64,000 bases of DNA from Methanotrichaceae archaeon (GTDB taxonomy: Archaea; Halobacteriota; Methanosarcinia; Methanotrichales; Methanotrichaceae): assembly GCA_963803145.1 (NCBI GenBank), contig CAWDLW010000015.1, positions 288,001-352,000 on the forward strand. Direction: 5' to 3'. The notes under the pieces were generated by a model. That model saw nothing but the letters and a program-made list of their open reading frames with translations, was not told where the DNA came from and searched no databases. The position numbers and the translations under genes are program-made. Below are positions 2,021-60,574 of the stretch, piece by piece; positions within the stretch are counted from its first letter, which is position 1; every line of letters begins with the position of its first letter.

Positions 2021-3079
2021 TGTAGAGTCCCGAATGTTTTGACTTTATATACTCGGTCTCTACTTTTAGGTTCTATCTCTAACATTTAATTCAGTCTCCA
2101 TACGATCGAGAAACATTTTCAGCTTGCACCCTTCTGGTAGCCTGGACCAGAAAGCACTATCTGGCGTCTGAAGATACCATTTTGTATCGAGCGATTCATG
2201 GAACCTAACAGTGTTATACCAATCCATGAAATTGTCAAAATTATCGAACCTAGACCTGTTCTTTTGGTATGTATCATTCCATTTTTCGAATTTGCCATTT
2301 GTCTGAGGGTGTTTGACTCTCGCTTTAATATGGACTATTTTATTATCCTTAAGGAAGTTCTCAAATCTGCTATCGGCCTCTCCCTTTTTATCTCGTTTAT
2401 TGGCATAGAACTGAGTTCCATGATCAGTCATTACCTGACTGATTCCCGTCAGCCATCCAAAGTTATCCAGCGCCTCCTGAAGGAGCATGATACTATTCTC
2501 AGTAGTTTCTGCATCGAACTCTCCGCCTGCGAGAATTCGCCGCGAACTATCATCAAGAACTGCACATACCTTTTTTCCATTGAGCTTACTGGTATGCCAG
2601 TCCAGATGTACCAGTGTCAGGCTGTGCTTGCGTTCCCACCTGACCCAAGGTTTTCTACGCTTCGCTTTATTACGGTTTACTTTAGCTTGGCCATGATTCA
2701 GCAGAACCTTGTGAATTGTGTTGTGAGGGATATGTTTTCCGTACTTGAATTCTATGATCTTTTCAAGACGCCTTGCCCCCAAATTTTGCTCTTTGTTGGT
2801 TTCTAATATCAATCTCTCTGATTCCTCATCAACATCTTTTTTCTTACGTCCAAATTTGTTAATGTTTAGGGGCATCTTGGTTTTCATCCAATGCATCCAG
2901 ACTCGCTTAACGGTTGACTCGCTGACTTTCATCTCAGCAGCGATTCTTTTGGTGCTGATGTTACTGGTTTTAGCTCGGATTATGTACCGGATCTTTCTTT
3001 GTGTTAGCTTTACAACCTTATTCTTCTTTCCCATGCCCCTTTGGTGGGTATATAAAGTCAAAGATTTCGGGACTACACA
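2021..3079 (-). mobile_element. IS481-family insertion sequence
   Basis: 32-bp imperfect IRs (TGTAGAGTCCCGAA..GACTTTATATAC / TGTGTAGTCCCGAA..GACTTTATATAC); 15-bp direct repeat GCCGATAGTATAAAG at 2006-2020 and 3080-3094. Confidence 0.92.
2066..3034 (-). CDS. IS481-family DDE transposase (rve core)
   Basis: N-terminal HTH; HLD..DDSSR..TDHGTQF..HPQTNGKFEKWN integrase-core motifs. Confidence 0.9.
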   Translation of the reverse strand: MGKKNKVVKLTQRKIRYIIRAKTSNISTKRIAAEMKVSESTVKRVWMHWMKTKMPLNINKFGRKKKDVDEESERLILETNKEQNLGARRLEKIIEFKYGKHIPHNTIHKVLLNHGQAKVNRNKAKRRKPWVRWERKHSLTLVHLDWHTSKLNGKKVCAVLDDSSRRILAGGEFDAETTENSIMLLQEALDNFGWLTGISQVMTDHGTQFYANKRDKKGEADSRFENFLKDNKIVHIKARVKHPQTNGKFEKWNDTYQKNRSRFDNFDNFMDWYNTVRFHESLDTKWYLQTPDSAFWSRLPEGCKLKMFLDRMETELNVRDRT

Positions 3080-3128
3080 GCCGATAGTATAAAGCTTATA
3101 AGAGATTAACTTCTATCATCAAGGGAGC

Positions 3129-4370
3129 TTGAATAAGTTAATGAATGGCTTTCACAGAACCGAACCCACAATATGCAGGGTTGCTCTATACTCACTGCTG
3201 CTAAACCTGTCTCTAGTATCCACTAAGCTTGTGCTCTCTATAATCACGGGCAGCCTAGCGCTACGCGCCGATGCTATACACTCTTTGGTTGATGTTTTTG
3301 GATCGTTAGCTCTGATAATGGGATTGGTTATATCCAGCAGAAAGAGCAGCAGCTTCCCATATGGTCTTTACAAAGTAGAGAATATGGTTTCGATTATTAT
3401 ATCTTTATTGCTCTTTTCGACGGCCTATGAGATCGTCAGGGAGGCATTAACTGTGGAACAGTCAATCAATCCCTATGGCGAATGGGTTCTATTGGTTGCG
3501 GGTTTTATGATCCCAATCCCGCTTCTGTTCGGTCGCTTTGAGGTAAGGGCTGGACAGAAAGCAAACTCCCCAAGCCTGATTGCTGATGGCAGCCAGTTCA
3601 AGATAGATGCCTTTACAGCATCTATAGTTCTTTTCGCTTTGGTTGGTCAGCATTATGGCGCCCCTCTGGATAGAATCGCAGCAATAGTGGTTGCTATTTT
3701 CGTAGTCAGAGCAGGTTGGAGCATCCTGGTAAGCGGGATGCGGGTGCTCTTGGATGCATCTGTGGACGCACAGACACTGGAGAAAATTCGGATAGCGATA
3801 GAGGCCGAACCAGATGTGAGTGCTGTGAAGTCAGTCACAGCTCGTAACTCTGGACGATATCTTTTCGTTGAGGCTACGGTAGCGCTGCGTATCACCGACC
3901 TGACGAAAGCGCATCAGGCTAGCGAGCGTATAGAGAAGAAGATACGGGAAGCAGTGCCCCATGTGGATCGAGTCATAATACATTATGAGCCCCAGAGCAG
4001 GACCCGGATTCGCTATGCTATTCCTCTAGCAGATGCCGGCGGAGAGATCAGCCTCCACTTTGGAGAGGCTCCCTACTTTGCCCTGGTGGAGATAGATATG
4101 CAACAGAAGATAGTCTCCCGACGGGAAGTGCTGGCCAATCCTTATAAGGATCTGGCAAAGGGTCGGGGACTACGGGTAGCTGAGTTCCTGCTCGACCACA
4201 AGCCGGATTTAGTCCTGACCAGAGAAAACCTCTCAGGAAAAGGCCCCGGCTATGTCTTCGCCGAGGCAGGTGTGGAGATAGTGCAGACCGAGGTCGAGAC
4301 GTTGGGAAAGCTAATTGTTGATCTGCTAGCAGGGCTCGAAACTAATTCTTCAAAGGACCTATCTACATAA
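3129..4370 (+). CDS. Cation diffusion facilitator transporter fused to C-terminal NifX/NifB-type (COG1433) domain
   Basis: ADAIHSLVD and FPYG CDF motifs, ZT dimer domain, C-terminal ISLHFGEAPYF. Confidence 0.88.
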   Translation: MNKLMNGFHRTEPTICRVALYSLLLNLSLVSTKLVLSIITGSLALRADAIHSLVDVFGSLALIMGLVISSRKSSSFPYGLYKVENMVSIIISLLLFSTAYEIVREALTVEQSINPYGEWVLLVAGFMIPIPLLFGRFEVRAGQKANSPSLIADGSQFKIDAFTASIVLFALVGQHYGAPLDRIAAIVVAIFVVRAGWSILVSGMRVLLDASVDAQTLEKIRIAIEAEPDVSAVKSVTARNSGRYLFVEATVALRITDLTKAHQASERIEKKIREAVPHVDRVIIHYEPQSRTRIRYAIPLADAGGEISLHFGEAPYFALVEIDMQQKIVSRREVLANPYKDLAKGRGLRVAEFLLDHKPDLVLTRENLSGKGPGYVFAEAGVEIVQTEVETLGKLIVDLLAGLETNSSKDLST

Positions 4371-21627: not shown

Positions 21628-21702
21628 TGGGCCTGGCCGGATTTGAACCGGCGACCACCCGGTTATGAGCCGGGCGCTCTTGCCGGACTAAGCTACAGGC
21701 CC
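21628..21702 (-). tRNA. tRNA with CAU anticodon, most likely tRNA-Ile2
   Basis: Cloverleaf GGGCCTG..CCCGG-CTCATAA-CCGGG..GTTCAAATC..CAGGCCCA; body resembles archaeal Ile2; tandem with tRNA-Asn. Confidence 0.88.
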
Positions 21703-21712
21703 GAAATGGATG

Positions 21713-21802
21713 CGCCGCCAACAGGGCTCGAACCTGTGACATTCTGGTTGCTGCTTTACGACAATTAACAGCCAGACACTCTACCATCTGAGTTATGGCG
21801 GC
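21713..21802 (-). tRNA. tRNA-Asn(GUU) with 17-nt intron at 37/38 (21749-21765)
   Basis: GCCGCCA/TGGCGGC acceptor stem; TCTGG-CTGTTA^[ATTGTCGTAAAGCAGCA]A-CCAGA; BHB helix CUGU/GCAG. Confidence 0.92.
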
Positions 21803-23819: not shown

Positions 23820-23894
23820 GCCTCGGTAGCTCAGCTGGTTAAGAGCGATTGACTTGTAATCAATAGGTCGCGTGTTCGAATCACGCCCGGGGCT
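23820..23894 (+). tRNA. tRNA-Thr(UGU)
   Basis: GCCTCGG/CCGGGGC acceptor stem; ATTGA-CTTGTAA-TCAAT; GTTCGAATC. Confidence 0.95.
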
Positions 23895-27115: not shown

Positions 27116-27295
27116 AATCTTGTCCCATCAACCTCATCGCCTGTGTTTCCAAAACATTCCTTCGAAAATGGGTTAGGGGTAGCCCGCATGGCAACAGAGT
27201 ACGCTAGTATAATCGTTAGTAGCAGCCCCAAATGCGAAAGTCAGAGCAGTTTTGGAATGTACGCTCTTGGATTATAATCTCTAGAAGAACACTAT
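27116..27295 (+). repeat. Dispersed structured repeat, copy A
   Basis: Manual alignment to the copies at 52035, 53466, 55218 and 57495. Confidence 0.8.
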
Positions 27296-46654: not shown

Positions 46655-47635
46655 TTGGACCACGTTGTTCACATCAATAATGGCTCTGAAAAGGCTGAAC
46701 CGCTTGTACTGCACCTTCTTCCTGGCGAGGAGATGAAGCTTGACCTTAAGGTTGTAAACCATGGGGCGCCATCGAATATATCCTTGAAGGCGAGCAATGA
46801 CATTGCGAACGCGGTTCGAACGGATAAACCAGACCATTATCTGGCCGGAGAGGATATAATTCCAATCCTGGCCAGGATGCCTGATGTGGATAGACTTGAA
46901 GGAGAAATTCTTTTTACAGGCGTTGGGGGTCAGAGCAGGTTGCCAATCGTATTTATCAAAGACTCCGAAGATCCGGATGATAACAGCCCGGAGAATGATG
47001 AGGGGCTTCCGTATACCGAAGAGGATGATGAAAAGGCCGATCCCGAGGATGCTGACCCAGATACAGAGAGTTCCAATAATTCTGAGGAGTCTGAGGATAC
47101 AAGCCGAATCAAGTTCTCCAAAGATAAAGACCTCCAAAGATATAGAGCATCCCGCATGCGCAGAGCCAATGCAGACTACAGAGACTCCAACAATAGGGAC
47201 ATGGATAATAGAGATATTGACAATAGAGACATAGACAATAAAGATATAGACAATAGGGATAGTGGCTACAGAGATATGGAATATAGGGATACTGAATACA
47301 GGGCTACAGAATTCGGAGATCCAGAAGGCGAGAGGCAAATAGAGAACACATCAAACAATGCAATCGACTATGGGCACCCAGATTCAACAGAAAATAACGA
47401 AGCCGCTGAAATCCCAGAAGAGAGAAACAACGAATTAAAAACGAGGCTATTTGAATTGACAGGCGATAAAAGCGCCCTCTTGGCAGTGCCTGCGGCCATG
47501 CTCATAGCCCTGATAGCACTGCTGATATTGACGTTTTACTCTGAGAGCATCCCTGAGTTTAGCGGCGCGCTTGCGTCGGCGATGCTGATCGTTACCCTTA
47601 TCATATACGGGGCTGCAACGCTCCTGAAGGCTTGA
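46655..47635 (+). CDS. Hypothetical membrane protein: beta-rich N-domain, acidic linker with NRDxD repeats, two C-terminal TM helices
   Basis: Composition; 15-bp degenerate tandem repeats at about 47170-47310. Confidence 0.75.
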   Translation: MDHVVHINNGSEKAEPLVLHLLPGEEMKLDLKVVNHGAPSNISLKASNDIANAVRTDKPDHYLAGEDIIPILARMPDVDRLEGEILFTGVGGQSRLPIVFIKDSEDPDDNSPENDEGLPYTEEDDEKADPEDADPDTESSNNSEESEDTSRIKFSKDKDLQRYRASRMRRANADYRDSNNRDMDNRDIDNRDIDNKDIDNRDSGYRDMEYRDTEYRATEFGDPEGERQIENTSNNAIDYGHPDSTENNEAAEIPEERNNELKTRLFELTGDKSALLAVPAAMLIALIALLILTFYSESIPEFSGALASAMLIVTLIIYGAATLLKA

Positions 47636-47719
47636 TTATGAGACGCGATAAGCGGACGCAAAGATCGAAGAGCGGAAGCAATATCATGCGGCAACGCTCC
47701 TGAAGGCTTGATTATGAGA
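47615..47719 (+). repeat. Exact 29-bp direct repeat GCAACGCTCCTGAAGGCTTGATTATGAGA separated by 47 bp
   Basis: Copies at 47615-47643 and 47691-47719. Confidence 0.92.
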
Positions 47720-49321
47720 TACATTGTGGTCACAGGCGGGGTTATGAGCGGGCTTGGAAAAGGTATCACCGCTGCATCGATAGGCAGGCTGCTCATGGAC
47801 AGGGGCTATCGCGTCACTGCGATCAAGATAGACCCCTACATCAACATAGATGCAGGTCTCATGAGCCCCTTCCAGCACGGAGAGGTCTTCGTCCTGAAGG
47901 ACGGAGGCGAGGTGGACCTCGACCTGGGGAACTACGAGCGATTTTTGGATGTCGAACTCACGCGCGACCATAACATCACAACTGGAAAGGTTTACAGCAC
48001 TGTTATCGATAAAGAACGCAGGGGCGAGTACCTCGGAAAGACAGTCCAGATAATCCCGCACATCACAGACGAGATCAAGAAGCGCATCAGACAGGTATCC
48101 CGCGACGGCGGATGCGAGATCTGTCTTATTGAAGTCGGCGGAACAGTGGGCGATATTGAGTCGATGCCCTTCCTTGAGGCCATGAGGCAGCTGAAGTACG
48201 AGGAGTCCGGCAACATCTTCTTCGTGCACGTGACCCTTGCCCCGTCGACGATGGATGGAGAGCAGAAGACGAAGCCGACGCAGCACAGCGTGAAGGAGAT
48301 GCGTGAGCTGGGCCTTCAGCCTGACATGATAGTAGTGAGGTGCGAGAAGCCTCTGCTCCCCGAGACGAAGGTAAAGATCGCGCTCTTCTGCGATGTTCCA
48401 GTTGATGCAGTGATCAGCGCCCATAATGCCGGAGATATCTACAAGGTCCCACTGCAGCTTGATGCCGAGGGCCTGACGAAGTATCTCATGAAGGCCATGA
48501 GGCTGTTCCCACTTGAGGAGAGAAAGGATTGGGACGGTTTCGTGAAGAAGATGGACGAACCTCTGGAGACGGTGACAGTTGCAATCGTCGGGAAGTACAC
48601 CGTCGGCTCACAGTGCGCAGACCCAATGGAGGATGCCTACCTTTCCATCCGCGAGTCTTTGAAGCACGCTGGAATCCAGGCAGGCGTCAGGCCTGAGATT
48701 ATGTGGGTGGATGCAGAAGAGCTTGAGAGAGGCTCGCCAGATCTGATCCTCAGGGGTGCCGATGGAATTCTAGTTCCCGGAGGCTTCGGCTCACGGGGTA
48801 CTGAGGGAAAGATCAAGGCTGTGCAATATGCACGCGAACATAATATTCCTTACTTGGGGCTATGCTTTGGAATGCAGCTTGCTGTCATTGAGTTTGCGAG
48901 AAATGTCTGCGGCCTTGAGGGCGCAAGCTCAACTGAGTTCGGGCCAACGCCTAATCCTGTTATCGCCATTCTTCCTGAGCAGGAGAAGATCAGGGAGATG
49001 GGTGCGACAATGCGCCTGGGGAACTATCCTGCGCACCTGAAAGAGGGAAGCCTTGCCAAGAAGATCTACGGAGCAGACGAGATCATCGAGAGGCACAGGC
49101 ACAGGTACGAAGTGAATCCCGGATTTATCAAGCAGATTGAGTCTAAGGGCATGATCTTTTCAGGAACAAATGACGATCTGATGGAGATCTGCGAGATACC
49201 TGAGCATCCGTTCTTCTTTGGGTCGCAGTTCCATCCTGAGATGAAGTCTCGACCTGGGAAGCCATCGCCGCCGTTTTTGGCGTTTGTGGAGGCGATGAAG
49301 GAGCGGAGAAAAAAAGGATAA
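47714..49321 (+). CDS. pyrG: CTP synthase
   Basis: [41 protein letters not shown]. Confidence 0.98.
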
Positions 49322-49423
49322 ATATTATTAATTCTAGTGTATTTTTTTCTATATAATCTATCATAAACGATACTGTTTTAAGCAAAGATTATTGTTACCG
49401 ATCTTATTGTAGGAGGATGACTT

Positions 49424-51982
49424 ATGAAAGAGGTATCTTTGGATTTAGGAAGACTTGCACAAGATAATCCTAATTATACTCCCAAAGAGCCTTTTCCTTG
49501 CCAAGGGGAGGCATTTAGAGCCTTAAGCAGTATCTTTACATTCCCAGCTGAAGGATACAAAGGCGGCCTTTTAGTCCTTCCTACAGGTGCAGGAAAAACG
49601 TTCACTGCAGTCAACTGGGTATGTAGAAATGTTCTTCCTAGAAAGACTAAGGTTCTTTGGCTAGCCCAGTCATCCTATTTACTCGAGCAGGCAGGCAGAG
49701 CTTTTTATGAAAACGCCCTTGTGATCCCTTATGGTAGGAAATCACTTAATATCAGAGTAGTATCAAGTAGCCCATTGCATTCCAAGCCGGCTACTATAAA
49801 GACTACCGATGATGTTCTAATTGTCACTACGCAAACAGCAATCAAGAATTTCAATGCCAATCCTGAGGATTTGAACGGTAAAAAAGTTGAAACGCACTTT
49901 AAGAATTTTATAAAGTGTAATGTAAACGATGGCTTATTCATAATACTAGATGAAGCTCATCATGCACCAGCGTATGGATGCAGGAACCTATTATCTAGTA
50001 TCGGTGAAATAATAAAAGATCTGTACCTCCTAGGCTTGACAGCTACGCCCACATATACTGATAAACGGACAAGGGGCTGGCTCTCTAAGATTTTCGATCA
50101 GGGCATAATTTATGAAGCCACAAAAGCAGGTCTGATTGCTCAGGACATTCTTGCCAAGCCTAAATATCTTGAAAAATCTACTGGCAGGGAGTTTGAGATA
50201 GATGATAAATTATATGATCGGCTTGTAAGAGAGCATAAAGATCTACGTGAGGATATCATTGAAAAACTAGCAAACGATTCTCCAAGAAACGATTTTATAA
50301 TTAACGACTATATAGATAATAAAAGCGTTTATGGAAAAACTATTATTTTTTCTGATAGATGGTTTCAATGTGAGTATATAAAAACAAAACTGAAGGATAA
50401 AGGAATAAAAGCAGAAGCTGTTTATTCTATGGAAGATACGAATCTAGGGTCATCCGAGTTGAGGAATAAGAGGACATCCACGGATAACGAAAAGATTATA
50501 AGAGATTTCTCGGAAGGTAAGTATGATGTGCTTGTAAATGTACGTATGCTTACAGAAGGCATTGACGTACCCGATGTTAAAACCGTTATGCTCACAAGGC
50601 AGACTACCAGTTCGATACTGACGACACAAATGATCGGAAGGGCCTTAAGAGGCAAAAAGGCTGGCGGTGGGCCCAATAAATCCGAGGCTAATATCGTATT
50701 ATTTATCGATAATTGGAAAGGCTTAATCAATGATGTTTGGGCACACTTCGAGGGTGGTTTAGAAAATATACCACCCATAGTTAGGGGCTATAGACCGTTG
50801 GAATACATATCAATCGATCTGATCGATAAAGTCAGCAGGCAAATCGATAACTGCCTTAACTATATTCCTGTGCCGTTCTTAGAATACGTTCCTATGGGCT
50901 GGTATCAAACAGAAATAACAGTAGGTCTAAAAGATGATATTAGTAAAAATGAAGAAATGCAATCTTTCGTAGAATATGTGATGGTTTATAATAGGACTAG
51001 AGATAAATTTGAAAAATTCATTGAGGGCGTATTTAATAAAATACCTTCACGTTGGGCTGATGAAAGCATTGATGAGAGATCGATAATAATTCCGCAAATT
51101 CATGATTGGATTAAAGAGAACGATTACTTTAACCTCGAAGAGGATAATATAGGTGGCAACCTGATAGATCATTTAGTAAAAATAGTAAGACACATAGCAC
51201 AAAACGGAGATCTGCCCGATTACCATTCCTTTGATGAGCGAGGTTTGTATGATTTAGACAAATTGGCTGAACGATTTGCGAATAAAACGTCCTTCGAGCA
51301 GCTTCATTTTTTAAAATTTGAGTTTGATAAACCAGGCAATTTATGGAAGATATTCTATAGAGATTTCTATAGATTTAAAACAGCATATGATGGCGCCCTA
51401 AACAGATATATCGATATAACCATGAATGGTGAAAATTTCAAGCCATTAAAAGAAGAAATAAACCCCATGGATCTCGAGCTCACTGAGGAGGAAAAAGAAC
51501 AAGTTAAAGCCAGAGATGGCATGTGTTTATGTTGTTTTAAGAAGGGACGCGGAAATATATTACAGGTAGATCATATCATTCCCATCTTCATGGGCGGACC
51601 AGCTAATGTAGAAAATTCTCAAACTCTATGTAAAGAATGCAATAGGCAGAAAGGGATAAACTCGGTTAATTTTAGAAGCAATACAACTCCTTTAGTTAAT
51701 CCTAAAGAATTGAAACTTTATCCTACACAGGGAAGAGAGTCTCCTTTGAATACATTAGCTAGGACTATAAACTTCTTTTTCCATTGCCAAGCTATATTAG
51801 ATATTAATGCAAGCGAAAGAAGAAATGGAAAGAACTATTCAAAATGGGAAATAAAGATTTATCAGGGAAATAATCCCCAATGGCTGATAAACCATGAAAT
51901 TGCTTTGATAAAATATATTCAAAACGATTTACGTTGCCCTCAAGTTAAAAGCATAGAAGTATTGGGCGTATCTGATCACTAA
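49424..51982 (+). CDS. SF2 (ResIII-like) DEAH helicase fused to HNH endonuclease; AT-rich
   Basis: LPTGAGKT, LDEAHH, TAT, QMIGRALR; RDGMCLCC..VDHIIP..GG..N.QTLCKECNRQKG. Confidence 0.9.
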   Translation: MKEVSLDLGRLAQDNPNYTPKEPFPCQGEAFRALSSIFTFPAEGYKGGLLVLPTGAGKTFTAVNWVCRNVLPRKTKVLWLAQSSYLLEQAGRAFYENALVIPYGRKSLNIRVVSSSPLHSKPATIKTTDDVLIVTTQTAIKNFNANPEDLNGKKVETHFKNFIKCNVNDGLFIILDEAHHAPAYGCRNLLSSIGEIIKDLYLLGLTATPTYTDKRTRGWLSKIFDQGIIYEATKAGLIAQDILAKPKYLEKSTGREFEIDDKLYDRLVREHKDLREDIIEKLANDSPRNDFIINDYIDNKSVYGKTIIFSDRWFQCEYIKTKLKDKGIKAEAVYSMEDTNLGSSELRNKRTSTDNEKIIRDFSEGKYDVLVNVRMLTEGIDVPDVKTVMLTRQTTSSILTTQMIGRALRGKKAGGGPNKSEANIVLFIDNWKGLINDVWAHFEGGLENIPPIVRGYRPLEYISIDLIDKVSRQIDNCLNYIPVPFLEYVPMGWYQTEITVGLKDDISKNEEMQSFVEYVMVYNRTRDKFEKFIEGVFNKIPSRWADESIDERSIIIPQIHDWIKENDYFNLEEDNIGGNLIDHLVKIVRHIAQNGDLPDYHSFDERGLYDLDKLAERFANKTSFEQLHFLKFEFDKPGNLWKIFYRDFYRFKTAYDGALNRYIDITMNGENFKPLKEEINPMDLELTEEEKEQVKARDGMCLCCFKKGRGNILQVDHIIPIFMGGPANVENSQTLCKECNRQKGINSVNFRSNTTPLVNPKELKLYPTQGRESPLNTLARTINFFFHCQAILDINASERRNGKNYSKWEIKIYQGNNPQWLINHEIALIKYIQNDLRCPQVKSIEVLGVSDH

Positions 51983-52034
51983 ATATAGATCTATGTAACA
52001 GATTCATTGGAAGATAATGATATAGGGAATTGTT

Positions 52035-52175
52035 AATCTTATTCCCTTCAACCTGATAGCATGGGTTTTCCAAAGCCTTCCCCCAGCGAGGGGTTAGGGG
52101 CAGCCCGCGCGGCGATTGAGCGCGCTAGAATAGCCGTTAGTGTTAGCCCCAGAAGTAAGCGTTAGCTTCTGAATT
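52035..52175 (+). repeat. Dispersed structured repeat, copy B
   Basis: CCCTTCAACC..CCCCCAGCGAGGGGTTAGGGGCAGCCCGCGCGGCGATTGAGCGCGCTAG..GTTAG..TAGCCCC. Confidence 0.85.
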
Positions 52176-52255
52176 GTGTAATCAGCTCCGATACGTAGTT
52201 AAATAGTAATCAGAGACGCTCGCTTTGCACGAAATAAACTACCATATTTCGCGCC

Positions 52256-52414
52256 TTAAGCATTCTGAGAGTGAACTGCACGCAGCCTCTTGAATTCCCG
52301 GAGCAATTCTGCCATGGCCTTATCTTTAGATGAATAATGCCCCTCTTTCTGGAAATCTATAAGAACGTTATGCGCTTCCTCGTCTACTACAACGTTTATC
52401 CTTTTTAGCTCCAT
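52256..52414 (-). CDS. 52-aa ribbon-helix-helix-like regulator (not in ORF track)
   Basis: MELKRINVVVDEEAHNVLIDFQKEGHYSSKDKAMAELLREFKRLRAVHSQNA*: beta-helix-helix pattern. Confidence 0.7.
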   Translation of the reverse strand: MELKRINVVVDEEAHNVLIDFQKEGHYSSKDKAMAELLREFKRLRAVHSQNA

Positions 52415-52469
52415 TGGGATCTGACTTATGTCTTACATATTTATAACAATATCGTCATACTATAAAAGT

Positions 52470-52510
52470 TTAACGTTATAATAGTTAACTATTTAAACGT
52501 TAACGTTATA
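52470..52510. promoter_or_regulatory. 34-bp near-perfect palindrome with repeated AACGTT/GTTAAC units between divergent genes
   Basis: TTAACGTTATAATAGTT|AACTATTTAAACGTTAA followed by CGTTATA. Confidence 0.7.
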
Positions 52511-52533
52511 GTAAAACATAGAGGCGAAATAGC

Positions 52534-52764
52534 ATGGCCGGGATTGTTCGCATAAGCGGTAAGATCATGAGCATACATGGAGCGGCTGAAAAGATGAATA
52601 ACATAAGCTTAGCTGCTGGTGATTTCCCCGATGTATTGCACGTCTTTAGCTTGGAATTTCCCTCTGAAGCCGCCATACCAAACGGCGATGTCCACGAAGG
52701 CTCTATACGATGCTCCTCACAAGAGCTCTCAGAAACAGAGATCTCAAAATCAGAGGCGGTCTAA
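52534..52764 (+). CDS. Hypothetical protein
   Basis: GAGGCG RBS-like site; stop abuts next start. Confidence 0.4.
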   Translation: MAGIVRISGKIMSIHGAAEKMNNISLAAGDFPDVLHVFSLEFPSEAAIPNGDVHEGSIRCSSQELSETEISKSEAV

Positions 52765-53352
52765 ATGGCCGCTCCAAACCATTCCGAAAACGCCTTGCTG
52801 ATAGCTACCGATTCAATTAACACAATAGCGTCCGATTCAGCAACCGCAAACACATTATCAGAGCTGAGCGCAGCACTAGCCGAGCTTCAGCCTCTGGCCT
52901 CCAGGATCGCCAATCTGAAAAAGGAAACTCTGGAGAAAGAAGCGATAATCCTGAAAGCGATCCTGGAGAAGGCCACACCTCTGGTGCCTCTGCTGAGTGA
53001 AGACTGCGAGCAGCATTACCGCCGTGAGATTGTCATCCTGGCCAGAGAAGAGAGAGTGCAGCTTGAGGAGGGCTTTAGCTTTTTCAGCGAGCACAGACTG
53101 ATTCTCTACGAAAATGGCCTCTTAGTGAGAACGCATCGCTATGGCGAATCATCTGAAGGTCTGCACCCGGGATGGGAGAATACAGACGAGGTTGTTCTTA
53201 CACCTGAGGCGGCCATAATTACATTCGATTTCAGAGAAATTTCAAAGGGCCTGATAAAGGTGCTTGGTGAGGCATCATCGATGGCTATCCTCAAAGAGAA
53301 GCTTGAAGGCGATCTGGTGGCTTTAGCTAAGGCACTGGAGGCTCTACATTAA
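52765..53352 (+). CDS. Hypothetical protein (helical/coiled-coil)
   Basis: 195-aa ORF with protein-like composition. Confidence 0.65.
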   Translation: MAAPNHSENALLIATDSINTIASDSATANTLSELSAALAELQPLASRIANLKKETLEKEAIILKAILEKATPLVPLLSEDCEQHYRREIVILAREERVQLEEGFSFFSEHRLILYENGLLVRTHRYGESSEGLHPGWENTDEVVLTPEAAIITFDFREISKGLIKVLGEASSMAILKEKLEGDLVALAKALEALH

Positions 53353-53465
53353 GACTTCAGCGGACTTGTTAGCAGGAATGCAGCTTTGGAGCGCCTTTAC
53401 GAGATTTTCATTCGTTTTTCAGCAACTAAATAGAACGGAGCTCAACTAGCGAACGCATTTTCTGG

Positions 53466-53601
53466 AGCGCCCGCGCGGGCTACCCAGACGCGCGGGCGTT
53501 GGAGCGCGCTAGTATAACCGTTAGTTTTAGCTCCAAATACGAAGTCGGAGCGGTTCTTAGATTACGAGGCGCAGATTGAATATCTCTTATAGGAACTCTA
53601 T
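53466..53601 (+). repeat. Dispersed structured repeat, copy C (3' part, preceded by a distinct 10-bp GC hairpin)
   Basis: GAGCGCGCTAGTATAACCGTTAGTTTTAGCTCCAAATACGAAGTC.. aligns with copy A over about 100 bp. Confidence 0.8.
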
Positions 53602-53608
53602 GGATACT

Positions 53609-53971
53609 TCAATGCTCAAAGAACCTCATCTCTATTTCATCCAAGATATCTGAGATGCATTTTTCTTTTGACTCCTCAACAACCCCAGGAAGATGTTTGT
53701 GGCAGGGAAACGTTGAGACTTCATGATGAGGCGCATTATCGTATCTGAATATCATTGCACCTTCCTTATCCATGAAGTGAAACCTATACTTTAATCGCTT
53801 ATCTCCCTTGAGGTATTCCATAAATTCCAGCAGCGATCCATCCATGAAGAGGAGCTTTCCTATCAGCATGCCTTCCGAGGGAGTAAATTCACGAAAATCC
53901 ACGCTCTTATCTGCAACGACCTTTGAATTCTCTATTCTCATCTCGACTTCACGGAAATAGTCAGAGATCAA
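53609..53971 (-). CDS. DUF6516/TumE-like toxin
   Basis: FMDGSLL, YRFH, FRYDNAPHH..TFPCHKH. Confidence 0.82.
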   Translation of the reverse strand: MISDYFREVEMRIENSKVVADKSVDFREFTPSEGMLIGKLLFMDGSLLEFMEYLKGDKRLKYRFHFMDKEGAMIFRYDNAPHHEVSTFPCHKHLPGVVEESKEKCISDILDEIEMRFFEH

Positions 53972-54246
53972 GTGGATAGCACCGCTTTTATCTTCGCTAG
54001 TTCATCTTCGATTGCCTTTTGGCCTTTGAGCAGGCCCCACCATTTAAAGCAATCCTGAGAATCACCCAGCTCTCCTGCCTCAAACCTGCTCATAAATTCA
54101 GCCGAGCTTATTCCATACTTCCGCTCAAGTTCGGCTATCCCCTCTGCCGTCAGCTTCCTCTTCATCTCCAATAGTCCCATCTCCCTTTCCAAGGATCTTC
54201 TTATTATTAGAGATGCATCTTCAGCAATTGAGGCATACATAAACAA
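53968..54246 (-). CDS. TumA-like antitoxin
   Basis: ELERKYGISSAEFMSRFEAGELGD..KW; 4-nt overlap with the toxin. Confidence 0.72.
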   Translation of the reverse strand: MFMYASIAEDASLIIRRSLEREMGLLEMKRKLTAEGIAELERKYGISSAEFMSRFEAGELGDSQDCFKWWGLLKGQKAIEDELAKIKAVLST

Positions 54247-54361
54247 TTAAAATTGCTTTTAGTTTTATAAAGCTTTTCAGGCTTGAAGATACTCTGACGA
54301 AGCTTCATCTTAACCTCGTCAACTTTATCGCCTGTATTTCCGGAAACTATAGTCCTAGACG

Positions 54362-54718
54362 TTACTCAAAAGTTGGTGCTGCAGGGTCACATGGGGCCTG
54401 CACAGATCGAGTGGGCATAGCTGGCGGCTCCTTTCCTGCCAGCTTTTCGATGAGGCTTCTATTGATATCCTTAAAGGCCCTTATGAAATCCGAGTCCTCG
54501 TTGACCGTGTAATAATTAGCATTGCCGCGCTTGGAGTCCAGCTTTATTAATCCCCATTCAAGAAACTTTTTTACTACAGGTATCGCCGCCTGACGCGAAA
54601 TATCGGACTCCTCGGCTATCTCGGTCATATTGAAATCATAACCCCTTTTAGATATAATGGATTCTATTATCCTCAATTCGCTAGTATCCCCGAACAGTTT
54701 CTCGAAGGGCTCCGCCAT
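54362..54718 (-). CDS. Winged-helix DNA-binding protein
   Basis: LFGDTSELRII, FNMTEIAEESDISR. Confidence 0.8.
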   Translation of the reverse strand: MAEPFEKLFGDTSELRIIESIISKRGYDFNMTEIAEESDISRQAAIPVVKKFLEWGLIKLDSKRGNANYYTVNEDSDFIRAFKDINRSLIEKLAGKEPPAMPTRSVQAPCDPAAPTFE

Positions 54719-54784
54719 ATATGTCTCCGATCTAAGTAAGTTTTCTTTCTATATATCAGTTTTGACAGCAGTGTTAACTTATCT

Positions 54785-55074
54785 TTACAAATGCCTAATT
54801 CTACCCGATGCAACATCGTAGTCATGTAAGCTAAGGGCGCTCTCGACCGTGGGGCGATCAGAAATGAAATACTTAGGATCGTTTTTCTTTTTTCGTGTCA
54901 AATAGCCTTTATTGGCCAGGCTTTTAGCGGCCTCTCTCTCACATCCTTATTATGTATTCTTTGGAATCCTTTATATAGCCTCAATAAGTTGAAACTGGAA
55001 TTGCTGGTAAAGCAACGCCTACTATATAATTTATCGAGAAGCCATAATTCATAATCCGCAAGACCGCATGGCAA
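54785..55074 (-). pseudogene. About 95-aa basic protein frameshifted by an extra AG in a (GA)n run
   Basis: MPCGLADYELWLLDKLYSRRCF..KDVRE / AAKSLANKGYLTRKKKNDPKYFISD..GRIRHL*; removing 2 nt at about 54932-54940 restores the frame. Confidence 0.65.
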
Positions 55075-55217
55075 CTTGCCATCTCCTCGTTTTATGGATA
55101 AGGCTTCAGGCGAAAAAGGTTTTGGTGGATCATCAAGGAAAATGAAATATAGCTAAGGCTAATACCTCAGATTGCATCAAAGTCGCAAGCTTTGATACTA
55201 CAATAAAGGGATGAGCT

Positions 55218-55335
55218 AATCCTATCCTATTCAACCTTACAGTATATGTTTTCCAAAGCATTCCCCCAGCGAGGGGTTAGAGGTAGCCCACACGGCGACT
55301 GAATGCGCTATTAGGTCGCTAGTAGCCCCAAAAGC
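55218..55335 (+). repeat. Dispersed structured repeat, copy D
   Basis: TTCAACC..TTTTCCAAAGCATTCCCCCAGCGAGGGGTTAGAGGTAGCCC..TAGCCCC. Confidence 0.85.
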
Positions 55336-55364
55336 CGGGTTAGGAATGGCATAACCTAAAATAT

Positions 55365-56450
55365 TAGGACTTACGCATTTGCCGGAACTTTCTTATAATA
55401 TGGAGTTTATATTAAATGAGAAATGAGCTGGAGAAAGAGGCATTGAATCCGGCTAAATGCGATGATCTAGATTACATTCACTTTCTAATTGCATCGATGG
55501 ATGTTTTTTCCTGCACCGAAGCAGCTAGATGTCAGTTACCACGGGAAAATAATCCATCACATGATGCATTTACCCGTCTATTACAAAGACAGCCTCCTGA
55601 TACGGAAGCGTTATGGGATGAGGTTAAGAAATTCATCGGCACCCAAGACTGTTTCTTAATTCTTGACGATACAACATTGGACAAACCCTATGCCAAAAAG
55701 ATGGATTTAGTCTATCCCCTTTGGAGCGGAAAGCATCATAAAGTAGTAGAAGGAATCAATATTACTACATTGCTTTGGACGGATGGGACTCCAATAATTC
55801 CAGTTGATTTTCGAGTCTATGATAAAGATACTGATGGCAAATCAAAGAACAATCATTTTCGCGATATGTTGAGTAAAGCAAACGAACGTGGATTCAAGCC
55901 TGATTTTGTTCTTTTTGATAGCTGGTACTCTGGAATAGATAATCTCAAAGCATTAAGGAAATTCGGTTGGCATTGGTTTACTAGGTTGAAGAAAAATAGA
56001 TTAGTAAATCCTGATGATACTAAGAATATACCAATTGAGGAAATAGAGATCCCACCACAAGGCAGAATTGTGCATTTGAAGGCTTACGGTTTTATAAAAG
56101 TATTCAAGATTGTCTCCGATGATGGTGACATCGAATACTGGGCGACTGATTCATTGAAAATGAAAGAAACGAGGCGAAAAGTATTAAGTAAGCATTCTTG
56201 GAAAATCGAAGAATATCACAGAGGGATTAAACAATTCTGCGGAGTTGAGCGCTGTCAAGCAAGAAAAAGTCAGTCTCAGAGAGCACATATCTCTTTCTCT
56301 ATTAGAGCATTTCTCAGATTGGAGCTAAATCGACTTATCAAGGGCATAAGTTGGTTTGAAAGTAAGCGTAGAATTATTAGAAACGCTATTAGCACATACA
56401 GAGAATATCCCGATTTCTTATGGTTTATGGGCTCAACTGCGTAAGTCCTA
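55365..56450 (+). mobile_element. IS701-family insertion sequence
   Basis: Perfect 13-bp IR TAGGACTTACGCA; 5-bp TSD AATAT. Confidence 0.92.
55416..56444 (+). CDS. IS701-family transposase
   Basis: SHDAFTRLL, LDDTTLDKPY, FDSWY, WKIEEYHRGIKQ. Confidence 0.92.
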   Translation: MRNELEKEALNPAKCDDLDYIHFLIASMDVFSCTEAARCQLPRENNPSHDAFTRLLQRQPPDTEALWDEVKKFIGTQDCFLILDDTTLDKPYAKKMDLVYPLWSGKHHKVVEGINITTLLWTDGTPIIPVDFRVYDKDTDGKSKNNHFRDMLSKANERGFKPDFVLFDSWYSGIDNLKALRKFGWHWFTRLKKNRLVNPDDTKNIPIEEIEIPPQGRIVHLKAYGFIKVFKIVSDDGDIEYWATDSLKMKETRRKVLSKHSWKIEEYHRGIKQFCGVERCQARKSQSQRAHISFSIRAFLRLELNRLIKGISWFESKRRIIRNAISTYREYPDFLWFMGSTA

Positions 56451-56615
56451 AATATATTGGCACCTACAAAAATCGAACCTGGAGATGAATATGCTTTAAG
56501 ATTCAATCTTCTCCACACTCTTCATAATCCTGCTCTAGCTCTTTGATGAGATCCTCATCGTATTCAGTAATACCCATAAAACCGTAATACTGCCAGGTCT
56601 TGATAACTTGCGCTC

Positions 56616-57122
56616 TCATGGCTTGTAGATATCTATGTCACCAATCCTTCCAAAATCACCATCATTGGTTGCGATATTGGTGATGCCTCTGGTCTTCATA
56701 AATGCTATATGGGTGGCATCGGAAATTAAGAGGCCATGTTTATTCGATAGGTCAACCGCCATATCAATTATCGCTACATCGACGCCATGGATGACAAGGG
56801 GATACTCCCTTATCCTAGCATAATCCCTCCAAACCTGTGAAAGTCTGGAAATAGCCTCTGGTCGCTCCTTTAGGAGCTTTATTGTATCACGTTCAGACCT
56901 TAGCTTATAGACTCTGGCTGTTTCGGCAAGGATTAGTTTGTGGATGACTTCATTTAGCACTTGAGTAGACGTAGAAGCTGAGTAAATATCTGCTTCAACC
57001 TTTTTTAAAAATGCCATGCACGAGTTTCTGAACCTTGGATGACCGAGGACATCGTATAAAAATATATTGGAATCAATAAAGATCTCAGATGCTGATGGAA
57101 GCTGCTCCAGCGATTTTATCAA
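56616..57122 (-). CDS. vapC: VapC PIN-domain toxin
   Basis: FIDSNIF, VLNE, DATHIA, IATNDGDF. Confidence 0.9.
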   Translation of the reverse strand: MIKSLEQLPSASEIFIDSNIFLYDVLGHPRFRNSCMAFLKKVEADIYSASTSTQVLNEVIHKLILAETARVYKLRSERDTIKLLKERPEAISRLSQVWRDYARIREYPLVIHGVDVAIIDMAVDLSNKHGLLISDATHIAFMKTRGITNIATNDGDFGRIGDIDIYKP

Positions 57123-57337
57123 AGCCAGTCCTCAGAATCTATTATTTCGTCGATTAAATTTATATCATCGAGCTTGATAGAATCAGTGATCTCCTCAGTA
57201 ATGCTTTTTACTGGCTTGATAAGTAGTTCCCCCGCTTTAACGCTCAAAGCTACTTTCTTACCTTCGCTAAGCCCTAGCTCAGATAATATAGAGCTAGGAA
57301 GCTCAAGCACTCCGCCCTTCCGGATTATCGCCTCCAA
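57119..57337 (-). CDS. AbrB/MazE-type antitoxin (VapB)
   Basis: GVLELPSSILSELGLSEG swapped-hairpin motif; overlaps vapC. Confidence 0.85.
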   Translation of the reverse strand: MEAIIRKGGVLELPSSILSELGLSEGKKVALSVKAGELLIKPVKSITEEITDSIKLDDINLIDEIIDSEDWL

Positions 57338-57494
57338 ATTAATCCCCGCTTACAGTCAATTTTACACGACTTAAATAGGATATGAGATGTCAAACCTTTA
57401 TAAAAGCCATTCATAATATAGATTCCCCATGATCTAGAGAGGTGCCTATATTGACGTCCCTTCTTTCTATTTTAGGTCTTATGGCACTGCTAAT

Positions 57495-57632
57495 ATTCAC
57501 GAACCTGAACTTCGTTTTGAGGCTAAAACTAATGGCGATCCTAGCGCGCTCAATCGCCGCGCAGGCTGCCCCCCTAACCCCTCTCTGGGAGAAGGTTCTG
57601 GATCTGCAGGCAATAAGGTTGATGGGAATATA
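57495..57632 (-). repeat. Dispersed structured repeat, copy E (inverted)
   Basis: Reverse complement reads CCCATCAACC..GAGAGGGGTTAGGGGGGCAGCCTGCGCGGCGATTGAGCGCGCTAG..TTAGTTTTAGCCTC. Confidence 0.85.
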
Positions 57633-57662
57633 TAGACGACTCCTATCCTGAGAAATTCAGCC

Positions 57663-57960
57663 CTAATCTTGCGCCTTCCGATTCTCCTTCAGCCTTTTCA
57701 GAGCCTCGCCATAGTCATCTCTAAAGTAATCTAGATCCTTCTGCGTATATTTATCGGAGATATAATCGGTGAGTTTTCTCTCAGCCTCTATTCCCAACCC
57801 TGCCTTCGTTATACAATCCAGAAACGCCTTCAAGTAATCTGAGAACTCATCCGCATAATAGCCATTGGAGTCATCCACCTCATCCATTCGCTCCTCGATG
57901 GTCTCAAAAAGCGCCTGGTATATCTTGGCAGCCTCAAGGAAGTTCTTCCTTTGCAAGAAT
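57663..57960 (-). pseudogene. C-terminal fragment of a helical protein (resembles C-termini of SWIM-finger proteins)
   Basis: NFLEAAKIYQALFE..EVDDSNGYY; no credible start or RBS. Confidence 0.5.
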
Positions 57961-58054
57961 TTATGTTTACAAGCTATAAACATTTTGTTTACAGGCTGGC
58001 AACAATATGTTTACGCCATGTACCATGTAAACTTCGGGATTCAACTGGAACCAG

Positions 58055-58738
58055 CTATATCATTCCTAAATACACTGGAACTGCTATCAGTATCGTGGGC
58101 ACCGCCACAACTGTCCAGACGATATGGCTGCTGCGCCATATCTTCGCCCCATCCAGGGGACCAAAGGGCAGTAGATTGAAGGCCGCCAGCACCAAATTTA
58201 TGAATAGTGCAAAATTTATGGCGCCAAACCATAGTCCGCTCGTTGCAGCGCCGCTAATGATCAGCGCGAAGAATAATATTGCTAATACTATGTTCGTCAG
58301 AGGACCGGCCAGGGATATCCATAGCTCCTCTTTTCTTTCCCTTTCAGCCTCGGATTGTCCTGTCGATCCCGACGACACACCAGCCCAGTAGGCATCCTCG
58401 GACATCGGATGTGCCTTGTAGATCATCACAGCACCGGGGGCTGCGAGTATAAATCCAAAAAGTGCCATGACGATGATGAGTACCAGACCAGGCCGATTCG
58501 CCCTGTACTCTGCCCAGTAGCCGTACCTTTGGGCAACGAACTTATGAGCCATCTCATGCAGCAGGAAGCCTGTGCCTGTGCCAATCGCTGATACGAAGAG
58601 CACATCTGCGCTTGGCATACGCCGCTCGCCTAAGATTGCGAAACCGACAGTAAGCGCTATCAGAGATAAGAGCAGATCAACCAGCTCTGTATTTCCGATC
58701 CTGCTGAAGTTGCTCATATACGCCAACAAAACTGCCAT
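58055..58738 (-). CDS. M50 site-2 protease family protein
   Basis: HEMAH, AGPLTN, FNLLPFGPLDG. Confidence 0.92.
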   Translation of the reverse strand: MAVLLAYMSNFSRIGNTELVDLLLSLIALTVGFAILGERRMPSADVLFVSAIGTGTGFLLHEMAHKFVAQRYGYWAEYRANRPGLVLIIVMALFGFILAAPGAVMIYKAHPMSEDAYWAGVSSGSTGQSEAERERKEELWISLAGPLTNIVLAILFFALIISGAATSGLWFGAINFALFINLVLAAFNLLPFGPLDGAKIWRSSHIVWTVVAVPTILIAVPVYLGMI

Positions 58739-58959
58739 CTAACTGCCATCTATATCAGTCTATTGATGCTAATTTTGAGACGATAAGAGCGATAGAACAG
58801 CGACTGAATGTGGAATTGATTAGATATTGAATAATCGAGTGCTGAACGCGGATAGAATAAGAACTTCTAGATTGACGATATTTCCTAGATTGCTGAAGAG
58901 GGGCATCCGAGTCGCATTAGTAGCATTCGGCTCAGTACCTCATCAGCTTTTTTTGTGAA

Positions 58960-59268
58960 TCATGCGTGTGCTCTGGCCTGTGAAGCAGTTCCTGCTGATC
59001 TGCTCCTTCGATTCCTGGCTGCATGGCGGGTGCGTTTTCCCACTACATCTGATATCTTTACCCATTCGCCCGTTTCTTCATCCTTCTTGTACTCCTCTTT
59101 CACAGCAGACCATGCTGCCTCATGGGAGTCCTTCTCGCGCGCAAGATCGTCTTCGGCATCAGAATAATCATCCCAGGCGCTGTTGAAGGCCTTCATATAG
59201 ATCGTCTTGGCACGGCTAGGAAGATTGCGGACACTTTTGGGCAACTCGTTTATGTTCTCGTAAGGCAT
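58960..59268 (-). CDS. ChaB-family protein
   Basis: ELPKSVRNLP..IYMKAFNSAW..AWSAVKEEY. Confidence 0.9.
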   Translation of the reverse strand: MPYENINELPKSVRNLPSRAKTIYMKAFNSAWDDYSDAEDDLAREKDSHEAAWSAVKEEYKKDEETGEWVKISDVVGKRTRHAARNRRSRSAGTASQARAHA

Positions 59269-59402
59269 CTATACACCCCCTGCGTTTGTTGTGTGCAGGT
59301 AACCTAGTAACTATGGAGAAGGTAGTTTAAAGGTTTTCTGGTTGCTGTGTCTTAGTGTGTCACGGCATATTGATATAACCATATACAGTTGCCTCAATTG
59401 TG

Positions 59403-60574
59403 GGTAGTCTACCTTAGATAAGTTGTTATATTATCAACTGCAATCATATAATTGGAGGAATACAATGATGAATGAACAATTGGTTCCTCCAAGCACGTTT
59501 TGCTGGAACCAAGAGTGTATCGACTATTGCAAAGTAAAAAATGAAAACATCATAAAATTTGGCCGAACCGCCAAAGGAACACAACGCTATCGATGTAAGA
59601 CCTGTGGGAAGACATTCGTTGAAAACATAGGTACAGTATTCTATGGTCGCCATCATAGCCAGGATACAATTCTAAAATGCTTAGCCTTGCTGGCCGAACG
59701 CAATAGTCTGGCATCCATCCATCGGGTTATGGGGATTAAAGAAGAAACAGTTATGGATTGGCTTCACGAAGCAGCTAGCCACGTTGAAGAGCTAGAGGCT
59801 CTAATGCTTGCAAACTATAAACTGACTCGTGTTCAACTGGATGCTATGTGGTCATACGTAGGAAATAAAGGCGAAAAGGGGGCTATCCAGAAGAGAACGA
59901 TCGTGGTAGCTTCTGGCGCGGTACAACGATAGATATGGATACTCGCCTTAGAGTTGGGCGGTCAATCAGGAAGAGTGAAAGCGAAGTCTCTATGGAATTG
60001 ATGGCCCAGTTGAAGGCTCGTGGTAATCCGGATAAACCTCCTGCTATCGCTACTGATGGCTATGATAGTTATCCGGAGGATATGCTTGAGACTTGGGGGA
60101 AAGTACCTGAATACTCTGGTAGAGGAAGACCGCCTACTCGAAAGAAGTCTGAGCCTGATTGGAAATGCATTCAGATAATCAAAACACGATCTGGAGGGCA
60201 TCTTGTTAGTATCCACTACAAAGTTGTCTTTGGTGATACGAAAGGGGTCTGTGATCTAATGGGCACCCATACTGCCTATATCGAGAGGACTCATCTAACA
60301 TCCAGACAGATGAATGGGCGATTTGTTAGAAAGACCATTTCGTTCTCTAAAGAGATCGAGATGCATAGGGTTTCTTGTGCCTGGGAAGATTGGGTTTATA
60401 ATTTGGCCAGGCCTAACAAGTCGTTACGAATCGATTCAGCAGAATCAAAGCGACGCTGGACGCAAAGATCTCCAGCTATGGCTGCAGGTTTGACTGATCA
60501 TATTTGGACTATAAAAGAAATCCTTATGAATGTCGTGGTTCCAGACGGGAGCAACATGAAATAGGTAGACTACC
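59403..60574 (+). mobile_element. IS1-family insertion sequence
   Basis: 12-bp IR GGTAGTCTACCT; 8-bp TSD CAATTGTG. Confidence 0.92.
59465..60564 (+). CDS. IS1-family transposase, two ORFs joined by -1 frameshift at AAAGGGG (about 59875-59881)
   Basis: Zn finger + HTH, QLDAMW; -1 frame reads GYPEENDRGSFWRGTTIDMDTRL..TDG..TAYIER. Confidence 0.85.

Follow-up and report, generated by a model that had tools for sequence, protein, structure and literature searches.

A modular, structured repeat family that separates accessory gene modules in Methanotrichaceae and may act as a recombination junction

Structured repeats lie between genes in several described systems: chromosomal Vibrio integrons carry ~120-nt repeats, the pneumococcal BOX element is a modular intergenic repeat built as boxA-boxB(n)-boxC, and the neisserial NIME/dRS3 repeats are targeted by IS110-like recombinases. 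IS110-family insertion sequences (ISs) are described in part of one report as preferring repetitive extragenic palindromic (REP) sequences as targets (PMC11208160), IS1111-group elements in part of another as targeting attC sites (PMC11187229), and the main text of an archaeal integron survey recognises integron arrays without an integrase (clusters of attC sites lacking integron-integrases, CALINs) operationally by two or more co-oriented sites <4 kb apart (PMC9668308). Here we describe a repeat family in a 64,000-nt stretch of DNA from a Methanotrichaceae archaeon (the window; GenBank assembly GCA_963803145.1, contig CAWDLW010000015.1, forward-strand positions 288,001 to 352,000), where a first-pass annotation had noticed five copies of an unrecognised hairpin-rich repeat, most of them in an island of defence and toxin-antitoxin (TA) genes. 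[quoted passage not shown] We tentatively favour, while giving it somewhat less than an even chance, the reading that the repeat is a strand-specific recombination junction at which cassettes (TA pairs, defence genes and hypothetical genes) accrete and are shuffled, with a putative enzyme that would act in trans. We found no prior description of the repeat in full-text literature or Rfam, and this lineage-restricted, structured, modular family is new.

Searching the 4.13 Mb genome to which the window belongs (G000) by nhmmer with a profile seeded with four window copies returned 117 matches at E<1e-3, and a profile from 67 near-full copies returned 126, a count far above chance. A covariance model of the repeat core (R1, model positions 1–127) recovered all five window copies and aligned just positions 63–102 at the one near 53466, in agreement with its earlier description as a 3' part only. 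The repeat is ~130–260 bases long, with a common core of ~127 nt in the alignment of window copies and a near-invariant stretch of ~30–50 nt. The copies noted in the first-pass annotation are present at all five places, but the element proved longer and is built of modules, namely 5' extension, 5' module, a tandem-repeatable 3' module and a tail. The conserved 5' extension (~20–30 nt) comes in several classes, one running on from the stop codon of a family of 195-aa genes and another having a TATA-like box ~45 nt upstream (~14 of 77 copies, by eye); the tail is ~95 nt long on many copies, as judged from a flank listing and a boundary histogram. That the repeat is modular follows from the separate occurrence of its parts: the 3' module (profile position 63 onward) is found by itself ~70–75 nt downstream of full copies, and G001, one of two other species of the genus that we compared (G001 and G002), has 5' halves by themselves. 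Homology among unrelated copies mostly stops at −20 to +40 and at +90 to +150 of the core start (4247 pairwise matches, 77 copies). Because the 67 near-full copies average only 66% pairwise identity (range 44–85%), the family is old and without recent amplification; a G002 ortholog is 87% identical to its G000 copy, and the flanking genes are likewise 84–92% identical. Three convergent inverted pairs with a common central segment were also seen in G000 (C9:4342-4639, C17:253934-254231 and C38:47144-47440), in which the 3' module is swapped for a different GC-rich hairpin, of the type that also occurs in copies of another genus, g14, and precedes the partial window copy at 53466.

The description of the repeat as hairpin-rich held in one respect and not in another: single copies fold no better than shuffles (z-scores −1.27 to +0.28), but covariation supports conserved hairpins. 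The consensus model has five short helices across copies, including several local hairpins. When 32 copies are aligned by MAFFT, pairing reaches 91.2% of cells as compared to 88.2% in shuffles, none of 500 shuffles reaching 91.2%, and pairing drops to 34–48% when partners are slid by 1–3 columns. Double changes were found at 18 pairs, as compared to 11.7 in shuffles (0 of 500; 32 copies, four other genera), in an alignment that was fitted to the model and leans toward structure. Nearly all covariation lies within one hairpin with a conserved loop, whose two central pairs read C:G/G:C, C:G/C:G or U:A/C:G in G000 and U:A/G:C in other genera: four compensated states, as befits a conserved folded element. 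One-sided changes are mostly C to U opposite G, and in helices P1–P4 G:T combinations outnumber A:C (95 vs 35, largely from two pairs), which suggests structure in the top strand, in the form of either RNA or single-stranded DNA. The 3' hairpin that had been thought to differ with compensation between copies fared poorly, with only 62.7% of its cells pairing. In RNAalifold consensus folds (67 copies on both strands, and 32 copies), the ends are not paired to each other and the first ~45 nt are unpaired.

Repeats cluster and share a direction. From 110 sites we counted 54 neighbour pairs within 5 kb, about four-fold more than the 13.1 expected (maximum 23 in 1000 random placements), with 42 pairs co-oriented and 12 opposed. 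Ten arrays have at least three sites, at a median spacing of 1412 nt and a range of 0.9–3.5 kb, and the four largest (7, 7, 10 and 8 sites) are uniform in direction. The direction of the genes differs among these four: antisense to the repeats in two, sense in one and mixed in one; on five contigs GC skew tracks gene strand, without replichore signal. Array genes comprise TA pairs (PIN, MazE/MazF, ParE, HicA, HepT, UPF0175, DUF4258/DUF2283), small genes with no known function, an acylphosphatase-like family and the 195-aa family. Within the window island, a copy lies in each gap between modules, and the proposal of repeats separating discrete accessory modules is borne out.

To see how such loci differ between relatives, we compared five singleton or edge loci in the three species, and all are variable at the repeat. 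At pyrG, the site of the window island, G001 is without the repeat and has a ~20 nt motif like the element's 5' end, followed by a 195-aa gene and the right flank, and in G002 a different segment of four genes (4.7 kb) precedes a repeat that is missing its first ~25 nt. At the window's 27116 copy, G002 has 8.2 kb of other genes and only a 3' module beside the conserved right flank. At a locus on contig C17, the repeat stands alone between two conserved genes in G000; G001 has the 5' part and a tail piece without the central ~150 nt, and an unrelated segment of 1.39 kb, in which there is a 324-aa open reading frame (ORF), stands in G002. At the C12 locus synteny breaks at the repeat; the fifth locus, on C30, is taken up below.

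Module order, too, differs from G000 in its sister species, and one junction maps within the repeat. In G002 a module X (81- and 127-aa ORFs) stands directly before a module Y (86-, 74- and 193-aa ORFs); in G000 their counterparts, at 85–90% identity, are 7 kb apart in one array, and the switch in homology from X to Y falls inside the common repeat, at ~positions 40–118. Two adjoining modules are swapped between the G002 and G000 arrays, and a distinctive 5' extension stays with the module on its 5' side. More broadly, we matched 11 blocks from a G002 array to G000 C8:491.8-512.9 kb, where their order is permuted and the orientation of 10 is unchanged, a mapping that may mix paralogues with orthologues.

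In the mechanism that we propose, a DNA circle or incoming fragment with one repeat would recombine with a resident repeat to yield repeat-cargo-repeat in direct orientation, and repeated rounds would build co-oriented arrays. Recombination between direct repeats would in turn excise a module together with one hybrid repeat, which could re-enter at any other copy, the outcome being shuffling without inversion. Were the crossover to fall within the conserved core, the 5' extension and 5' module would travel with the module on the 5' side, and the 3' module and tail with that on the 3' side. One strand would be recognised in folded form by a putative protein, as suggested by the conserved hairpins and loops, the compensatory changes and the excess of G:T over A:C mismatches; as a fallback, plain homologous recombination at the near-invariant core could serve instead. 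The furthest-reaching version would be an archaeal gene-cassette system unrelated to integrons, in which a multi-hairpin site is read on one folded DNA strand by a putative recombinase (neither IntI nor RAYT) that takes up, stores and reshuffles TA and defence modules at >100 landing pads per genome, the integron principle having been independently invented in methanogens; we hold this to be distinctly unlikely.

Besides the possible paralogues in the block mapping, a number of observations weigh against recombination at the repeat. Firstly, no single crossover point emerges: junctions and truncations are spread over ~position 10, 20–28, 40–118 and 62–75, contrary to the expectation of a fixed breakpoint, and distances in different repeat segments are nearly uncorrelated (r = −0.03 to 0.31), giving no signal for where halves were exchanged. 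Secondly, modules and repeats do not always go together: a 2.7 kb species-specific segment on C30, without counterpart in G002, has its repeat in the interior and not at an edge, a TumE pair in G001 has no flanking repeats, a module Y' in G002 likewise stands without them, and only 8 of 64 high-identity block ends lie within 40 nt of a repeat in either genome, non-coding flanks diverging too fast for this to be a fair test. Thirdly, adjoining copies are in some cases products of local duplication (94% identity), so that part of the co-orientation is accounted for by duplication in tandem. Fourthly, neither an excised circle nor a transcript was observed, and no recombinase is linked to the repeats, so that any enzyme would act in trans: the 13 tyrosine-recombinase matches in the genome all lie outside arrays, the nearest 4.4 and 4.6 kb from a repeat. 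The first-pass annotation had noted an absence of integrase from the window. Nor does a Y1/HUH transposase suit the role, since PF01797 occurs in 16 of 25 genomes irrespective of whether they carry the repeat: there is none in G015, which has 6 repeats, and it is present in G003, G004, G010, G012 and G013, which have no repeats.

Two gene families common near the repeats were considered as its enzyme or partner and rejected. The 195-aa family occurs in only 4 of 41 genomes (tblastn matches: 24 in G000, 20 in G002, 1 in G018 and 1 in G001, which has more than 46 repeats) and is lacking in the repeat-bearing genera g10, g14 and g15. Among 15 of its genes in G000, at least 8 have a repeat 20–100 nt after the stop codon and at least 8 have one 430–720 nt upstream; the 5' flank of window copy 3 (55227..55349) holds a remnant resembling the 3' end of this family, by flank comparison. 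The member at window 52765-53352 has no Pfam or NCBIfam match, and all 120 named database relatives are listed as "hypothetical protein" from Methanotrichaceae or Methanothrix. Its predicted model has a long helix, four strands and a second long helix (pLDDT 81.4), and in Foldseek against the PDB it matched nothing at E <= 0.001, with faint PUR-alpha/Whirly-like rows only. The acylphosphatase-like family (174–197 aa; N-terminal acylphosphatase-like domain and repetitive coiled-coil tail) is common in arrays (L001:10213-11138, L002:9938-10462, L003:899-1492 and 2868-3428), and several of its copies lie 24–31 kb from any repeat.

One mobile element does have a defined relation to the repeat. A ~1.55 kb IS110-family element (Pfam DEDD_Tnp_IS110, Transposase_20) starts at the identical 3' module position in 7 copies and looks like a dedicated occupant. 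The element encodes a 419-aa DEDD transposase, and its 7 insertions are 92–99% identical. At 5 of them the element gives way at once to the remainder of the repeat; of the other two, one is at a contig end and one has a nested change. Two T's are apparently duplicated at the junction. This occupancy mirrors the IS110/IS1111 targeting of REP and attC sites described in those parts of the literature (PMC11208160, PMC11187229).

The main rival, and a serious one even if we consider it somewhat unlikely, is a structured intergenic repeat like REP sequences and bacterial interspersed mosaic elements (BIMEs) or like BOX, with a role at the RNA or chromosome level (transcript stabilisation or processing, small RNA, or a site for a nucleoid or topology protein), rearrangement being a side effect of homologous recombination between dispersed repeats, which would gather where insertions are tolerated. 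As with REP/BIME, the repeats are abundant, structured, often just after genes, old and host-restricted, and they are IS110-family targets (PMC11208160, in part); 74 of 79 near-full copies are intergenic by our own rough codon log-odds gene calls (4297 genes, 81% coding). As with BOX and NIME/dRS3, they are modular with one tandem-repeatable module, have predicted stable folds, lie in variable regions between conserved genes and, as in Neisseria, attract IS110-type elements. Conserved hairpins with a top-strand G:T bias, old diverged copies kept under constraint, and breakpoints variable enough to fit homologous rather than site-specific exchange all argue for this rival as well. So does placement outside the genus. 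At 34 loci of other genera and viral contigs, the closest ORF upstream points the same way as the repeat in 23 and the opposite way in 10, none being called at 1. Housekeeping genes (topoisomerase I, HisG, Ham1, DUF2099, QueC and others) are frequent as this upstream neighbour, and small accessory or TA genes lie across the repeat from them, an arrangement that also suits the junction reading. The same gap is occupied across genera: between topoisomerase I and a pelota-like gene in G011, G023 and G015, and after DUF2099 in G015 and G016.

Other evidence fits such an element less well. In G000 the upstream neighbour is co-oriented at 38 of the 79 near-full copies and opposite at 41, with a downstream neighbour convergent at 51, so that the structured strand would lie outside the neighbour's mRNA in about half of cases. 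Thus the rule that copies lie sense-oriented just downstream of a gene fails in general and holds where a co-oriented gene is upstream, at a median gap of 81 nt. The TATA-like box, which would suit an RNA role, is absent from most copies, and together with the near-random orientation this speaks against a stand-alone non-coding RNA gene, as had also been suggested; no oligo-T stretch was seen at a fixed end in the aligned flanks, by eye. Single-copy folding energies are ordinary, and the strict co-orientation of the large arrays regardless of gene direction is left unexplained. The resemblance to known families is likewise partial. A REP is a short (~20–40 nt) single imperfect palindrome, whereas the core here has 127 nt and 4–5 helices, plus extension and tail, at four to eight times the length of a REP; arrays run in direct orientation, with whole genes between sites, rather than forming tight inverted clusters; and no Y1/RAYT gene is co-distributed, the sole array Y1 of G002 belonging to an IS605-type pair. 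That pair (127-aa Y1 TnpA and 384-aa TnpB-like ORF; L047:8826-10351) sits between two array repeats, ~150 nt from the next, and is that genome's only strong Y1 match. BOX and NIME/dRS3 differ in their unrelated sequence, and the repeat described here belongs to an archaeon and marks off gene modules in co-oriented arrays spaced at kilobases.

Less probable again is a non-autonomous transposable element, of the MITE or palindrome-associated (PATE-like) kind, mobilised in trans by an IS enzyme (HUH Y1, DEDD/IS110 or other), with arrays reflecting a preference for insertion near existing copies; we regard this as improbable. The >100 dispersed copies with unrelated flanks on both sides and largely consistent boundaries, the patchy presence among genera, the inverted pairs on C9, C17 and C38, and the IS200/IS605 and IS110 elements in the genome and its arrays are all as such an element would have them. 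Against this, the ceiling of pairwise identity shows no recent burst, terminal inverted repeats or target duplications were not seen in 77 aligned flanks (by eye, with no formal scan), and clean presence or absence of the element alone was found at 0 of 5 loci in three species. Moreover, Y1 transposases are not co-distributed with the repeat, and the IS110 element targets the repeat and does not carry it.

The likeness to integrons and CALINs lies in organisation: co-oriented repeats of ~130 nt, modules of TA and small genes, an order shuffled between relatives with orientation kept, a junction inside the repeat, a strand-asymmetric structure and targeting of the IS110/IS1111 type. The differences lie in the site and the enzyme, for the repeats are without IntI, without an R''/L''-L'/R' end-to-end hairpin and without a fixed crossover; they conserve sequence motifs and several short hairpins instead of one long imperfect palindrome, many of the modules lie antisense to the repeats and seemingly have their own promoter-like box, and copies also occur singly, genome-wide. 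The earlier suggestion of a folded recombination site of a cassette system stands as far as structure, co-oriented arrays and reordered modules go, and not in respect of IntI, an attC-type end-to-end hairpin or a fixed breakpoint. That the repeats are unusually long attC sites of a true integron array served by an integrase elsewhere is scarcely credible: the arrays do have the spacing and co-orientation of a CALIN (PMC9668308, main text), their cassettes are TA-rich, GTTAGGG fits 6 of 7 positions of GTTRRRY and IS1111-group elements target attC sites (PMC11187229, in part), but 0 of 5 repeat-bearing genomes searched pass for IntI (TIGR02249; best 60.8 bits vs a cut-off of 265), consensus folds of either strand leave the ends unpaired, the GTT motifs are internal rather than at module boundaries, and Methanothrix, Methanosaeta, Methanosarcin- and Halobacteriota are not mentioned in the main text of the archaeal integron survey (PMC9668308).

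We also surveyed the distribution of the repeat. R1 matched in 8 of 41 genomes of the class: G000 (85 copies scored), the two congeneric species (46 and 70) and four further Methanotrichaceae genera (1–16 copies each), whereas 16 genomes from two other families gave no match. In a species-representative collection, 55 stretches contain an exact 20-letter core pattern, all in five Methanotrichaceae or Methanosaeta metagenome-assembled genomes, and a scan of metagenome contigs with a 33-letter pattern returned 3 stretches only. By these sequence searches, the repeat is confined to some Methanotrichaceae genera. Five viral-contig stretches also hold the core pattern, four of them GC-rich and weak matches to R1 (26–34 bits). 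On the viral contigs (L108:2152-2294, L107:2922-3064, L109:1385-1456 and L110:2971-3027) the divergent core consists of two hairpins and a GGTTAGGGG motif, and lies between a ~95-aa ORF and the start (within ~20–30 nt) of a 188-aa ORF whose N terminus resembles a signal peptide. The repeat matches no curated Rfam family: at the gathering threshold the window gave 3 tRNAs only, E-value mode gave nothing relevant for copy 1, and among 10 loci from viral contigs and other genera nothing but tRNAs reached threshold, with one sub-threshold match to an unrelated family. tRNA genes lie 0.2–3.5 kb from repeats in the window (21628-21802, minus strand; 23820-23894, plus strand) and in another genus (L035:1151-1333, L023:1766-1840), a proximity that may be coincidence or reflect common integration hot spots.

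Table 1. Repeat copies, island modules and IS occupants, in window coordinates except where a contig or locus is named; C15 is the window contig, and other C contigs belong to the same genome (G000).
Feature	Position	Strand	Evidence and remarks
Full repeat core, copy 1	52044..52170	+	R1 141.8 bits, model 1-127; nhmmer C15:340040-340173; separates helicase-HNH gene from next module
Partial copy, 3' module only	53489..53551	+	R1 31.1 bits at 53489-53529 (model 63-102); nhmmer profile 73-130; different GC hairpin precedes
Degenerate sixth remnant	54315..54381	+	R1 20.8 bits, E 0.0038; between TumE pair and winged helix-turn-helix (wHTH) gene
Full repeat core, copy 3	55227..55349	+	R1 96.7 bits
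Full repeat core, copy 4	57499..57626	-	R1 112.8 bits; sole inverted copy in island
Full repeat core, singleton at another variable spot	27124..27249	+	R1 93.8 bits
IS110 occupants	L002:8326-9870 (G000 C8, ~490.3-491.9 kb); G000 C27:15574, C18:150107, C15:18727, C34:4953, C42:1738, C9:32336		
Module 1: 852-aa helicase with HNH nuclease	49424..51982	+	Pfam ResIII, Helicase_C, HNH; missing at locus in G001, G002 and sediment contigs
Module 2: 52-aa ORF (-), 76-aa ORF (+), 195-aa ORF (+) of multi-copy family	52256..53352	mixed	no Pfam or NCBIfam match
Module 3: TumE toxin and 92-aa partner	53609..54246	-	Pfam TumE 2.4e-21
Module 4: wHTH protein and 58-aa ORF	54362..55074	-	Pfam HTH_11, MarR_2, weak
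IS701/IS4-like insertion, 1091 nt, directly after copy 3	55359..56449	+	Pfam DDE_Tnp_1, DDE_5; outside repeat system
Module 5: PIN toxin and MazE/AbrB-type antitoxin (VapBC-like)	56616..57337	-	Pfam PIN 3e-12, MazE_antitoxin 5e-4

The features of the window island and the IS110 occupants are collected in Table 1. The spot after pyrG, where G000 has the helicase-HNH gene, holds the four-gene segment in G002 (L008:5350-9700, with one long coiled-coil/ATPase-like ORF) and neither in G001; it looks like a defence-type hot spot. We compared DNA contigs of one sediment sample over 47000-60000, with 49604-51773 and 55680-56113 lacking cover. These contigs break, or diverge from the window, at repeats. 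They also join 55358 to 56450, skipping 1091 nt with 6 letters common to both, which indicates that the IS701/IS4-like insertion is recent or polymorphic. At 54346 they run on into repeat-like sequence, and a joint from 54346 to 52077 appears in 4 runs of one sample; such joints of one repeat copy to another do not keep register, and rather than excisions they most likely represent other copies of the family.

Should the repeats prove to be recombination junctions, they would account for the assembly and turnover of accessory genes, defence and TA genes among them, in these environmentally important acetoclastic methanogens without recognisable integron machinery, and would point to a new recombinase-site pair. 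On a more modest reading, they are, as far as our searches show, the first REP/BOX-like structured repeat family to be described for Methanotrichaceae, with clear covariation and a dedicated IS110-family occupant. They are also a practical cause of assembly breaks in Methanotrichaceae metagenome-assembled genomes.

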